Positions 8,656-55,110 of a stretch of 64,000 bases of DNA are shown here, one piece after another. The stretch spans positions 14,942,001 to 15,006,000 of the forward strand of contig OX597831.1 in NCBI GenBank assembly GCA_951406725.2, read 5' to 3'. The stretch's first letter is position 1. Each line of letters begins with the position of its first letter. The DNA comes from Octopus vulgaris (taxonomy: Eukaryota). The position numbers and the translations under genes were made by a program. Below the pieces are notes generated by a model. That model saw only the letters and a program-made list of their open reading frames with translations, did not search any database and was not told the DNA's origin.

Positions 8656-9068
8656 ATTCATGCATGCCTAACTAAACGCATACCGACGTACATTTATTTA
8701 GACATACAATCAAATACGTATGTACACATTCATTGGAACATCTATGCTAGTCAGCCTTTATACTTATCTCTTGTTTACATACATATACACATGCAAGCAT
8801 TCATTGATTAATGCATACATATCTACATGCATACATACCTACATCCATACAAACACACATGCTTTATTGCATATATGTAGGGAATATTTTTTGTATGACT
8901 AAACGTTTGCTCGCTGCATACTTACGTATTGAGGAGGTGGTTATAAATTTACTTATTGAATTTATTCACTGATACTTTTGTACACAGGGTAAATGCGTTT
9001 GAAAGTTGTGGTTTCTTTCGCATGTTTGTTCCTAGACAACACTTATCTTAGTACTGTTGACACCGCTG

Positions 9069-9130
9069 CATTGAATGGTACTGCCAAGGTGCCGAAACCG
9101 TAATGATACCCGTGGGACAGCTGATGATGG
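9069..9130 (+). ncRNA. Non-circularly permuted hammerhead ribozyme candidate
   Basis: CATTGAATGGTA^CTGCC-AAGGTG-CC-GAAA-CCGTAATG..GGACAG-CTGATGA-T-GG; stems III, I and II pair only in crossed order. Confidence 0.7.
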
Positions 9131-9528
9131 AGGTATGTTGGATTGTACGTATTGCTGTTTTTGCATATGTAGAATAGTGTTAGAATACATCGTTTTGATA
9201 TATCTACATACGACTATGTATATTAGAACCTCGATCAGCACGATGTGAACTTGTAGCTTGAATAGCAATACATTTATTGACGAGCGTCATCTCAAAGTCA
9301 AAAACGACTTTGTAACAATCATGTTAACTAAAGACATTTTCTCAGTTGCCAGATTCAATATATCGATCAACTGTTCATAAGCGAAGAAACATTTCGAGGC
9401 TAGATAGTGAATACTTGAAGAATTATTGACTTTTACTTTGATATCACATGAAGCTCTGAGACTGCTAAACTGAGGATCATATTCCTTAATAAAGACGTAG
9501 AAGAGAAACACACACATGCCCCATATAA

Positions 9529-37008: not shown

Positions 37009-37046
<38 letters not shown>

Positions 37047-37176
37047 TTTTATATCTGCATATATTGTTAGAGGACGTTACCAACTGTGTAAACAACATGA
37101 AATACGAAAACAAACGAGTTAAACACGCAGACAAAGAGAGAAAATCGAAAACGGGACAAGTAAACACGGAGAAATG

Positions 37177-37241
37177 ACTCTTCATCAGTTGTCGACTGTC
37201 TATCTACTCCTCATTTCGAGCATTAAGCGACAATATGAGAA
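37177..37241 (-). ncRNA. Non-circularly permuted hammerhead ribozyme candidate (best preserved)
   Basis: Minus: TTCTCATA^TTGTCG-CTTAAT-GCTC-GAAA-TGAGGA..CGACAA-CTGATGA-A-GAGT; stem III 7 bp, stem I 6 bp, stem II 4 bp. Confidence 0.8.
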
Positions 37242-37494
37242 TTCAAAAACCGTTGCACCCATGAATTCTAAAATACAATTTAGGATTTATGGAGGGACAA
37301 AGTTGAGAGCAAAAACAGGAGGGTGGAGACATAAAAGGAAACCGAACAAAAACAAACATGGAGGGACGGTAGACCAGAACTAGGCGCGCACACACACAAC
37401 GACACACACACACAGCACCCAAACAGACACACATATCTATATGGTAAATGGTAAATGAAAGATGGATGATGAAATATACCAGTATTTATCATCA

Positions 37495-40350: not shown

Positions 40351-41591
40351 GGCCCCGTAGAGATTTTGTCAAATAATCGCCTTAACTATTACAATATTAA
40401 TAACATTAAGAAATTCAAGCTCAATGCAAGACGTGTTCCGGTATGGAACTCGAGACGGTCAACTTGCTGCGAAGAAAGTACAACGTGAATGTAGTCGTTA
40501 CTGCGTGCGATAACGTGGCTGGATCCCAAATGGGTGAAGTAAGCTGGAGTGAGTTGAGAGTGATTGAATGGGAGTGAGAAGAGAATAGATAAGGGCATAA
40601 TAGATACGTAAATGATATCAAATAGAAGGTTGTCCTTTAGAAAGATAAACAACTTACTCTTTCTTATTGATTAACCTCCGAAGGAGAAAAACAATGTTGT
40701 GGAAAAATATTTTTCGATGCAAAATGAGAAATGTCTGAAAAGTATGTGAGTATTTTCTCCTCTACACGGAAGAAACAACACGGATTAACAGTGGGTATTT
40801 GGATGTAAGAATTTTATCAAAGTAATGACATAAAAAAGTTAATTTCTAGCATAAATTTACGTCATTTAAAAGTTGAAATTTTTGTGATAATACCAATAGG
40901 GTATAAGGTCAACCAACCTCATTCTGTATTTCGTAAAATTGTAAAATTGTAAAAATATAGGCTATTATTCATTAGGGAGTGGCGGAGAGAAAACGTACGT
41001 GTCACAAGTGTGATATTAGTTATGTAAATGCCTTCTACTGTGTCAATGTTAAACGTTAGAATGTGTTGTTGTGATAATCGAAAGAGCCTAAACAAAGAAC
41101 ACACCAACAAAAGCAGGAAAGTACAAGAACCCGATACAGGTAAGTATAATTATAAATGGCGTTGAAAGTACCAGCACATTTTAAGAATTTCAGAGCAGTG
41201 CTTTCACTAATACGGAAATATGCCAGCGTAATAGTAACAACATCATGGAGGTATAATTATACACAAAAATAGACAAATATAGGAGAACCCTGGGTGGAAG
41301 ACGATAAACTGGAAATGCCAAAGAAAAGCAGATTGTCCAACATCAGTCAACAGATGAAAATCTATCAGCTTAGGAACTCGGGAAACCAAAAGGAAAGGTA
41401 GGAAGTCATGAGGTGCTCATGGATCTGTCAATCATCAAAATAAAATAAATCTAACAGGAAACAGCAACCAAAAGAATAATATAAACACAAAGACAATTAG
41501 TTCCTGGGGTATATCAAAGGAATGTTATAAAAAAAAACAAATAAAGATTATTTACATTTGACGGATATTTGTCCTCATCTTATTTCTTGTT

Positions 41592-41637
41592 AACACAACG
41601 TTTCGGCTGATGTACTCTCCAGTCTTCATCAGGTGAC
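41592..41637 (-). ncRNA. Minimal type I hammerhead (left arm)
   Basis: Minus: GTCAC-CTGATGA-A-GACTG..CAGCC-GAAAC-GTT-GTGTT. Confidence 0.7.
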
Positions 41638-41717
41638 TTGAGGAAATTTCGAACATGGGTTCTCATTCCTAAGGTATTTTACGATGTGACCTGACTACTA
41701 CTACTACTACTACTACA

Positions 41718-41889: not shown

Positions 41890-41943
41890 CATACCTGCGA
41901 AAAATATCTTAGGAATGAGAACCCAGGTTCGAAATTTCCCCAA

Positions 41944-41989
41944 GACACCTGATGAAGGCTGGAGGGTATATCAGCCGAAACGTTGTGTT
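41944..41989 (+). ncRNA. Minimal type I hammerhead (right arm)
   Basis: GACAC-CTGATGA-A-GGCTG-N10-CAGCC-GAAAC-GTT-GTGTT; loopless palindromic AACGTT stem III. Confidence 0.8.
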
Positions 41990-42333
41990 AACAAGAAATA
42001 AGATGAGGACAAATATCCATCAAATGTAAATAATGTAAATAATTCCTCATCTCATAAAAATTGAACTGAAAAATAGATAAACGTGATCTGAGCTGATACA
42101 ATCATATTTCCAAAGTACGAGTAAAGGTAGTCACTGTTCATGGTTGCACCATTCTTTTGCCAAAAGTATTTTCATCCATACAGCAATGAGTTAACCTAAC
42201 AGGAATGTCAATGAACTTTGTAGGAGGTCGGATATTTTTAGCGCAAAATTAAATTCTGAAAACCGCAAGGGCATTCAACAAGAAATAATATTCTTAAGTC
42301 GACTTCTTTCCTCTTTTCAAGTCATAATAATAA

Positions 42334-45461: not shown

Positions 45462-45600
45462 GTCTTTTCGCATTTTTTCTGTATTCATATTCGTGTAACA
45501 TCGTCCGTTTTCCGTCCTTCTTTCGTATACATTCGAAGCTTTTTCCCAAGGAATCTAATGCGCTTCGCTTAGTTTTTTTTCTTGGGCTGGCCAGATTGGA

Positions 45601-45660
45601 GCAATCTCAAGATTAATCAGCCGAAATTGCGAGGATGATCCGGTTCTTGACTGAAGATAG
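45601..45660 (+). ncRNA. Non-circularly permuted hammerhead ribozyme candidate
   Basis: GCAATC^TCAAGA-TTAATCAG-CC-GAAA-TTGC-N14-TCTTGA-CTGAAGA-TAG; perfect stems III (5 bp) and I (6 bp), stem II weak. Confidence 0.75.
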
Positions 45661-45780
45661 AAGACTTCGAATGTCCTGTCCGTGTTTTTTGTATCGTCTT
45701 CTAAATGCTATGCGTTCTTGTCCCAGTTTGTGCTTTATATATATGTGTGTGTGTGTATACACACACACACACACACACAT

Positions 45781-47627: not shown

Positions 47628-47673
47628 CTTCGAAACACGCATGGAGTCGTACTAGGGACAGCTGATGAAGGAG
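47628..47673 (+). ncRNA. 5'-truncated permuted hammerhead (GAAA strand and CUGAUGA strand only)
   Basis: CTTC-GAAAC-N25-CTGATGA-A-GGAG; upstream cleavage strand replaced by (TATC)n. Confidence 0.5.
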
Positions 47674-47952
47674 AATTTTCCTTGTGTTGTTTGTCTTGTA
47701 CTCTGTTTTTTCGTTATTAAAAAAAGGTCTGTTTCCATGTTTGTTTTACGTTTTCGTTTCTCGTTGAGTTCTGCGTCTATTTTTGGTGACCCGTACTCAC
47801 GTATATATATTTATATATGCATGTATATATACATGTAGATGTAGGTACGTACATATATGTATGTATGTGTGCATATATTTTATTTATTACACTATATATA
47901 TATATATATTTCTATATCTATAGAGAGTGAGATAAATATACATACACACACA

Positions 47953-50974: not shown

Positions 50975-51603
50975 AGGCGGTGAGCTGGCAGAAACGTTAG
51001 CACACCGGGCGAAATGCGTAGCTGTATTTCGTCTGCCATTACTTTCTTAGTTCAAGTTCCGTCGAGGTCGACTTTGCCTTTCATCCTTTCGGGGTCGATA
51101 AATTAAGTACTAGTTACTTAATTTACTGGGGTCGATGTAATCGATTTAATCCGTCTGTCTGTCCTTGTTTGTCTCCTCTGTGTTTATCCCCTTTTGGGTA
51201 GTAAAGGAACAGGTATTTTGTCTGCCGAAGGCGGTGAGTTGGCAGAAACGTTAGCACGCCGGGCGAAATGCTTAGCAGTATTTCGCCGAGGTCGACTTTG
51301 CATTTTATCCTTTCGGGGTCGATTAAATTAGTACTGGGGTCGATATAATCGATTGTATCCGTTTGTCTATCCTTGTTTGTCCTATCTGTGTTTAGCCCCT
51401 TGTGGGTTGTAAAATAATAGGTATTTCGTCTGCCGCTACGTTCTGAGTTCAAATTCCGCCGAGGTCGACTTTGCCTTTCATCCTTTCGGGGTCGATTAAA
51501 TAAGTACCAGTTACGCACTGGAGTCGATATAATCGACTTAATCCGTTTGTTTGTCCTTGTTTGTCCCCTCTCTGTTTAGCCCCTTGTGGGCAGTAAAGAA
51601 ATA
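50975..51603 (+). mobile_element. Tandem trimer of SINE family C flanked by a 17-bp target site duplication
   Basis: AGAGTAGTGTAACTCCT at 50958-50974 and 51604-51620; three internal units. Confidence 0.9.
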
Positions 51604-54697: not shown

Positions 54698-55110
54698 GGG
54701 GATGTGGTGGGAAGCTAGCGGGGATCTAGTGAGAAGCTAGCGAGGATCTGGTGGGAATCTAGAGGGGATCTGGTGGGAAGCTAGCGAGGATCTGGTGGGA
54801 AGCTATCGGGGATCTGGTGGGAAGCTAGCGAGGATCTATTGGGTAGCTAGCGGGGATCTGGTGGGAAGCTAGAGGGGATCTGGTGGGAAGCCAGCGGGGA
54901 TCTGGTAGGGAGCTAGCGAGGATCTGGTGGGAAACTGAGGAGATCTGGTGGGAAGCTAGCGAGGACCTGGTGGGAAGCTATCGGGGATCTGGTGGGAAGC
55001 TAGCGGGGATCTGGTGGGAAGCTAGCGGGGATCTGGTGGGAAGCTAGAGGGGATCTGGTGGGAAGCCAGCGGGGATCTGGTGAGAAGCTAGCGGGGATCT
55101 GATGGGAAAC
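54698..55110. repeat. 22-bp G-rich minisatellite, ~19 copies
   Basis: Unit GGGATCTGGTGGGAAGCTAGCG; GATCT recurs at 22-bp spacing (54986, 55008). Confidence 0.95.

Follow-up and report, generated by a model that had tools for sequence, protein, structure and literature searches.

The hammerhead ribozyme was divided by Eckert et al. (2023, PMC10085705) into three blocks, S, G and C, types I, II and III corresponding to CGS, GSC and SCG. In the available part of that study, the order SGC is given for 583 predicted sequences, CSG for two metagenomic DNA sequences, and GCS for a single doubtful one. Short single constructs of the SGC RNAs cleave during transcription, at 0.007-0.19 per minute, and it is stated, with 176 variants at hand, that none was found in known organisms' genomes, save for one GCS candidate. 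A second related system is that of the non-LTR retrozymes, non-autonomous derivatives of Penelope-like elements (PLEs) that are presumed to be PLE-driven; the 2026 preprint on animal retrozymes that describes them (bioRxiv 10.64898/2026.07.22.740005) covers, in its accessible text, type I only, and a 2026 paper cites hammerhead permutations only in passing. Among the PLEs themselves, Naiads have been reported without canonical hammerheads, some carrying an unexplained 'HHR_core' or 'HHR_half_core', and those of cephalopods are said to have been inactive for a long time (Craig et al. 2021, PMC8557442, in the parts available). Within the literature that was searched, most subscription papers lying outside it, no paper assigns hammerheads of type SGC or CSG to animals or PLEs.

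We analysed a window of 64,000 nt of Octopus vulgaris DNA (the whole stretch, in whose positions all coordinates are given), and more specifically the element at 37241-37177 on the minus strand. By sequence and by its crossed stems this element is a type SGC hammerhead; the topology is already known, because type SGC was described and shown to cleave by Eckert et al. (PMC10085705), and it is the setting that is new. We propose, with a probability of about 0.7, that the element is a type SGC hammerhead carried close to the 3' end by a non-autonomous Penelope-like retroelement, whose most likely type is Naiad.

Read 5' to 3' on the minus strand, the element runs from the 3' strand of stem III through the AUA triplet, the 5' strand of stem I, a 6-nt linker, the 3' strand of stem II and GAAA, and then through the 5' strand of stem III, a second linker, the 3' strand of stem I, CUGAUGA, a bulged A and the 5' strand of stem II. 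Block S comprises UUCUCAU with A17 (37241-37234; U16.1 is 37235 and A17 is 37234) and UUGUCG (37233-37228), block G comprises GCUC, GAAA and the 5' strand of stem III (37221-37208), and block C comprises CGACAA, CUGAUGA, the bulged A and GAGU (37194-37177). All were assigned from the sequence and the descriptor used below, the second half of block S also from compensatory changes across families. The pairings that an earlier note had drawn are those we observe: stem III joins UUCUCAU (37241-37235) to AUGAGGA (37214-37208) in 7 bp, including A15.1-U16.1 and one G-U; stem I joins UUGUCG to CGACAA (37194-37189) in six Watson-Crick pairs; stem II joins GCUC (37221-37218) to GAGU (37180-37177) in 4 bp, one of them G-U. 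Its claim of an intact core (CUGAUGA at 37188-37182, GAAA at 37217-37214) is likewise correct, as is the position of the predicted cut, after the AUA triplet, between 37234 and 37233. The single bulged A, between CUGAUGA and the 5' strand of stem II, is 37181. The order cleavage site, GAAA, CUGANGA is that of type SGC, the core with A15.1-U16.1 and H17 is complete, stems I, II and III abut it with 6, 4 and 7 bp, and G10.1-C11.1 is present. Because the three stems cross, the element forms no nested three-way junction and cannot be drawn as type I, II or III, so that its description as a permuted hammerhead, borne out by the S-G-C block order, the crossing stems and the lack of an Rfam match, stands.

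We built a descriptor covering all six block orders, with strict limits of at least 6 bp for stem I, 4 bp for stem II and 5 bp for stem III. In the real window, the copy at 37241-37177 is its only SGC match, and in 150 dinucleotide shuffles, made in 500-nt chunks of the window, there was no match for any block order at these limits; relaxing stem II to 2 bp gave one match among the 150 shuffles. Rfam gave no match at gathering score in the whole window. In the nested minimum-energy fold, GCUC forms a rival hairpin with the linker instead of the knot; its z of -0.46 is uninformative on the knot because nested folding cannot show crossing stems.

Besides the element, whose repeat family we call F1, the window has three CUGANGA motifs, each from a repeat family of its own (F2, F3 and F4), and a fifth family, F5, was found by a descriptor scan of 248 fetched loci (2085 candidates). 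The same fold is present in these four additional families, one of which is a Naiad. The F2 copy, at 8877-9210 (plus; 1481 candidates), corresponds to the 3' end of Naiad_Obim/Ovul and has a decayed SGC core at about 9075-9130. The F3 copy, at 47628-47922 (plus; 2652 candidates), is cut off inside the ribozyme and has lost block S; its family, related to F1, has the full SGC fold. The F4 copy, at 45509-45736 (plus; 2375 candidates), shows the SGC order with stems I and III intact and a non-canonical stem II. F5 is young, its best matches being 97-99% alike; it aligns with F1 at 70-73% over ribozyme and 3' end, and also with F3. It is the youngest of the SGC families (L249-L273), and inverted 5' copies are frequent in it.

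One representative copy stood for each family, and its pairs were counted by core position; a MAFFT alignment of all five families misaligned the blocks and was not used for this count. From F1 to F5, 29 of 30 cells are paired in stem I and all 25 in stem III, and each position other than the fixed A15.1-U16.1 shows 2-4 pair types; when strands are swapped between families, 101 of 200 cells pair. Stem II pairs in 15 of 20 cells in the canonical register, being 2 bp in F2 and out of register in F4. CUGANGA, GAAA and the NUH triplet (AUA, GUA, GUU, AUC and GUA in the five families) are in exact register in all five, with 13-16 nt from the cut to GAAA and 27-30 nt from GAAA to CUGA. The pairing of F3 amounts to a prediction met, because its window copy lacks block S and the pairing was found only after the family had been fetched; that of F5, which was picked by descriptor, is partly by construction and counts for less. 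Within F1, 26 copies show no two-sided change, and their pairing (95.6%) equals the shuffle mean, which is what neutral decay after insertion leads one to expect and lends the structure no support. Covariation thus supports stems I and III across families, is weak for stem II, and is absent within F1.

The window also holds other hammerhead-like sequences and repeats. At 471-393 (minus) lies a canonical type I hammerhead of the form usual in PLEs, its stem III being palindromic and its loop II long. An inverted pair of PLE ends with type I hammerheads (41580-41680, minus, and 41900-42000, plus) surrounds an (ACT)n/(TAA)n tract, and this type I PLE family recurs in L142, L171 and L185. A degenerate type I hammerhead at about 37600-37490 (minus), with a stem II of 9 bp and a loop of about 60 nt, lies on the same strand as the SGC ribozyme, 350 nt upstream. 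At about 49991-49940 (minus), CUGACGA is followed by a hairpin and then GAAA, possibly a decayed type I core. A G-rich 22-bp minisatellite of 18.7 copies occupies 54698-55108, and at 50979-51603 a common short repeat, structured and with several hairpins, is present in three partial tandem copies, in which no hammerhead core was found.

The window ribozyme is no unique element; it is one decayed copy of a high-copy repeat. In this microsatellite-rich genome of 2.8 Gb, a first look with the 121 nt surrounding the ribozyme returned 1445 candidates, of which the best are 87-89% identical, and an upstream walk gave 1585, figures that count candidates and not copies; F1 has at least 1,000 candidate copies. 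The walk defines a non-coding unit of about 720-790 bp. It opens with a short 5' segment that closes on GTAAGT, resembling a splice donor, and continues with pyrimidine-rich sequence for about 430 nt; an AG resembling an acceptor follows, 34 nt ahead of the cut, and after it come the ribozyme and a 3' end that is fixed and leads into (TA)n. The window copy, at 37050-37380 (minus), is 5'-truncated, 83% identical to the full unit L031 over 331 nt (BLAST) and 12-17% diverged. An (AT)n tract found by repeat scan lies at its 3' end (37013-37054), and the acceptor AG of the F1 majority sequence corresponds to 37269-37268. The donor-like partner near the 5' end of the unit is absent from this copy, and the acceptor-like AG is polymorphic in F5; both are putative intron signals, which may point to splicing of the unit.

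Most F1 copies are 5'-truncated and dispersed as single copies. By eye, head-to-tail copies occur in L042, L043 and L053 and an inverted copy at the 5' side in L040, and in L007 and L031 the first 40-60 nt of the unit are repeated as a tail past the unit end. By script, inverted copies number 1/30 in F1, 0/30 in F3 and 3/25 in F5, and tandem copies 1/30, 1/30 and 0/25; inspection by eye added tandem, inverted or tail cases at L040, L042, L043, L053, L257 and L262. A (TA)5 or longer tract lies at most 120 nt from the 3' end in 12/30 F1, 17/30 F3 and 5/25 F5 copies, in a genome that is itself microsatellite-rich. These traits, namely (TA)n ends, 5' truncation, tandems, an inverted 5' copy and tails, match PLE insertions as given in the accessible part of PMC8557442, where Naiads show (TA)n targets, tandem and inverted 5'-truncated insertions, and tails. 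With the non-LTR retrozymes, as far as their preprint is available (bioRxiv 10.64898/2026.07.22.740005), our families share short non-coding units, at times in tandem, with one hammerhead per unit. They differ in that those retrozymes are type I by definition, whereas F1, F3 and F5 are type SGC and mostly dispersed single truncated copies with intron-like signals. At L016:1125-1900, one copy each of F1 and F4 and an inverted F5-like one are nested within 800 nt, which suggests insertion into one another's (TA)n ends. A 1.4-kb tandem on C2 (L047, L051, L059, L061-L063) seems to be a larger local duplication with a truncated unit inside it, and was set aside.

The periphery adds a fourth helix. 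In every family from F1 to F5, the flank upstream of stem III is able to pair with the G-to-C linker in its 3' half (helix 4); in F1, 7-8 nt connect stem III to this helix. Its 3' strand in the window is AGACAG (37201-37196), one base from stem I, which pairs with the 5' flank in the near-majority copy L006, and its 5' strand (37252-37247) is CUGUCU in the F1 family and CGGUUU in the window copy. Against shuffled flanks, helix 4 gave p values of 0.009 for F1 (L006), 0.005 for F3 and 0.0015 for the F4 copy L096, and was not significant for the F4 copy L091 (0.37), for F5 (0.08), for the F2 copy L067, which has one linker base changed (0.42), or for the window copy (0.91), where the flank has mutated and the helix is lost. 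A helix 5 between the linker (37208-37202) and the 3' tail (37169-37159), placed like the stem I-II helix of Eckert et al., can be formed in F1 and is significant in no family (p 0.10-0.97). Compared with the SGC hammerheads of that study (HRIMA-1 and variants, PMC10085705, as far as available), the octopus ones share the S-G-C order, the full core, a peripheral helix on the G-to-C linker, a short S-to-G linker (typically 3 nt there, 3-6 nt here) and, by eye from the oligo table, the single bulged base after CUGAUGA, in a register like that of SGC-1 and SGC-2. They differ in four respects: they lie at high copy in animal chromosomal DNA and not in metatranscriptomes; their best-supported extra helix joins the linker to the 5' flank instead of the 3' tail; their stem II is shorter and G-U rich; and their cleavage is predicted.

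The window copy thus has an intact core and a damaged periphery. The claim that it is the best-preserved permuted hammerhead holds for its core within the window, as the sole SGC match of the strict scan, and fails for its periphery. As the first candidate to test, it is a poorer start than the young family F5, and the construct that was suggested (37170-37250) clips both peripheral pairings (37252-37247 and 37165-37159). There is a slightly less than even chance that the fold is real in the F1 family and that this copy is a dead relic, which misfolds and does not cleave. Its divergence of 12-17%, the loss of helix 4, the rival hairpin of the minimum-energy fold, the neutral look of the variation in F1 and the retention of core and stems in only 11/30 F1 copies (19/30 in F3, the copies being picked by their 3' tail) are consistent with such a relic. 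Nevertheless, every core base and all three stems are intact in this copy, and its private changes lengthen stem III by the two outer pairs, the family having 5 bp, and turn one stem II G-U into A-U. The founder of the F1 family probably cleaved, and the odds that the window copy would cleave detectably in vitro are about even.

The link to Naiads comes from F2, whose majority sequence is, by eye, the 3' end of the Naiad_Obim and Naiad_Ovul consensi, Naiad_Ovul being flagged 'HHR_half_core' in the metadata of PMC8557442 that were available; an RT fragment also precedes F2 in L119, matching RVT_1 at E 1.3e-5 but scoring below Pfam's cut-off, and likewise in L142 and L148. The match to these two consensi also places the genome among octopuses. 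We looked by eye at the Naiad consensi of File S5 of that study, in which line breaks can hide motifs; the motif places covered were 26-44 for CTGATGA, 4-17 for CTGACGA, 5-18 of 43 for CTGAAGA and 5-13 for CTGAGGA, together with fourteen 3' ends. In this portion, SGC or CSG folds, which are circular permutations of one another, are seen in 16 of the 54 published consensi. The S-G-C order with stems I and III is present in ten, from Acropora (three, near-identical), Clytia (one), Morbakka-2, Pomphorhynchus, Darwinula (one), Octopus (two) and Euprymna, all ten with a flank-linker helix of 5-10 bp, such as the Euprymna GCCAUGA/UCAUGGU and the Clytia CCUACAC/GUGUAGG. Stem II next to the core could not be paired by eye in Acropora, Clytia, Morbakka-2 and Euprymna, and several SGC-order Naiads have CC directly before GAAA with no partner for G10.1 after the core. 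Type CSG, named by Eckert et al. (PMC10085705) and absent from the octopus window, is seen with complete cores in six nematode Naiads (Nippostrongylus 1-3, Haemonchus, one Pristionchus, and one of Heligmosomoides or Ascaris), with a stem II of 4-5 bp and a stem I-II helix of 6-13 bp. No SGC or CSG fold was seen in the bivalve and spider consensi covered; the Beroe Naiad, with 2 bp of stem I only, was excluded from the count, and for the arthropod (spider, ostracod) consensi with motifs ending CCCCTGACGA no block order fits by eye.

From these consensi, it seems rather more probable than otherwise that Naiads kept a hammerhead, as SGC in cnidarians, an acanthocephalan, an ostracod and cephalopods and as CSG in nematodes, with a lineage-specific flank-linker helix. 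The scrambled block order may explain why they were thought to lack one. F1 itself is not placed within the Naiads, because no ORF is attached to it, none of the RT loci covered is in register with it, and no similarity to F2 was detected. The F1 unit has no ORF of the Naiad kind (N-terminal GIY-YIG and C-terminal RT), no similarity to F2 outside AT repeats was found by BLAST, and among 50 RT loci (the 30 best and 20 weaker of 152 RT-search matches) none was an autonomous partner in register with F1, F3 or F4 ends, the RT loci near F1 ends being only adjacent, unrelated insertions. In its lack of an ORF and of detected similarity to F2, F1 differs from the Naiads of PMC8557442 as available. 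From the fold and the insertion pattern, we lean towards mobilisation of F1 by a Naiad.

A different PLE could have moved F1, only the fold being common with Naiads, and this we consider unlikely. One such driver would be the young PLE family at L169-L177, which has intact ORFs of 753-782 aa with RT and C-terminal GIY-YIG, and whose terminal repeat shows, by eye, a type-I-like fold with UUGACAA replacing CUGAUGA. Its intact ORFs, set against cephalopod Naiads described as long inactive in the accessible part of PMC8557442, the youth of F5 and the lack of similarity between F1 and F2 outside AT repeats are in its favour. However, this family shares no ends with F1, F3 or F4, its fold is type-I-like with a variant core, and it is on Naiads that the SGC order and helix 4 are seen.

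Under the reading that we prefer, a Naiad-type PLE acting on a type SGC unit, a transcript of tandem units, or read-through of one copy, would arrange stems I-III around the standard core in a double pseudoknot, and helix 4 would link the far ends of stems III and I as a substitute for the loop I-II contact. The RNA would then be cut after A17 of the NUH triplet. Standard hammerhead chemistry gives 2',3'-cyclic phosphate and 5'-OH ends. The cut would free a unit-length RNA with a fixed 5' end, which a PLE reverse transcriptase/GIY-YIG protein would copy in trans into (TA)n tracts, where inserted copies such as that of the window would decay.

The active form might instead combine S and G of one unit with C supplied by a second RNA or by the unit next to it, as a swapped dimer or as C-S-G across a tandem junction, rather than being a one-molecule knot; we regard this as improbable. 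F1 units do occur in tandem, and type I hammerheads of PLEs reportedly cleave as dimers, both of which count for a swapped form. The same is true of the C-S-G order in the nematode Naiads and of the Darwinula and Pomphorhynchus Naiads, in the portion of File S5 covered, where by eye stem III and helix 4 run almost unbroken to stem I, making the one-molecule form hard to fit. Nevertheless, the SGC RNAs of Eckert et al. cleave as single short constructs in the available text (PMC10085705), and the 7-8 nt connectors of F1 are, by our estimate, enough for the turn.

Signs of activity were sought in about 6% of each of three RNA-seq runs under the same species label. At 82% identity or more, 977, 884 and 636 reads fall on L007:1210-1765, showing that F1 family sequences are transcribed; reads map to both strands about equally, and the strand is unreadable. 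No pile-up of read starts or ends was found at any place of L007:1210-1765 in the three runs with both strands mixed, and no go-back joints indicative of circular RNA were found in these runs with a reference lacking the unit junction. A cluster of loose ends at L007:1537 (48 reads, run X2) has inverted tail letters, is probably a genomic inversion junction, and was not counted as evidence. Four of 30 F1 5' ends lie at most 3 nt from the cut, compared with 0.93 expected at constant hazard (p 0.015), in copies picked by their 3' tail, and seven of 30 lie at -13 to +1 of the cut. In F3 there is no such excess (1/30, p 0.41); the F1 excess, being unrepeated, is suggestive at most.

The lack of a cut-site signal in the reads could also mean that the structure is kept for a non-catalytic role, such as RT binding, RNA stability or translation, with cleavage slow or lost, which we judge more improbable still than a swapped form. 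Such a role is also consistent with the variable stem II, broken in several Naiads, and with the Anolis PLE, whose hammerhead cleaves in vitro, with no reads starting at its cut site, and whose insertion in vitro does not need cleavage (PMC11167929, in the part available). However, the exact register of CUGANGA, GAAA and NUH in all five families fits selection for catalysis. Finally, a chance arrangement of short complementary words, for which nothing speaks except the absence of covariation inside F1, is very improbable, in view of the empty strict scan of the 150 shuffles and the compensatory changes across families.

Until now, non-circularly permuted ribozymes were the subject of one environmental-sequence study, with the host unknown, and the octopus provides them with a biological setting in an animal genome, with thousands of candidate SGC copies. 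For structural studies, the findings add naturally occurring SGC and CSG sequences that covary, together with a new peripheral helix, and they imply that descriptor searches restricted to types I-III undercount the ribozymes of animal genomes. They also bear on a question about PLEs, why Naiads appeared to do well while lacking the hammerhead of the others. If our reading is true, non-circular permutations would be old and present at high copy in animal genomes, and the octopus would host a new SGC retrozyme, with F5 recently active.
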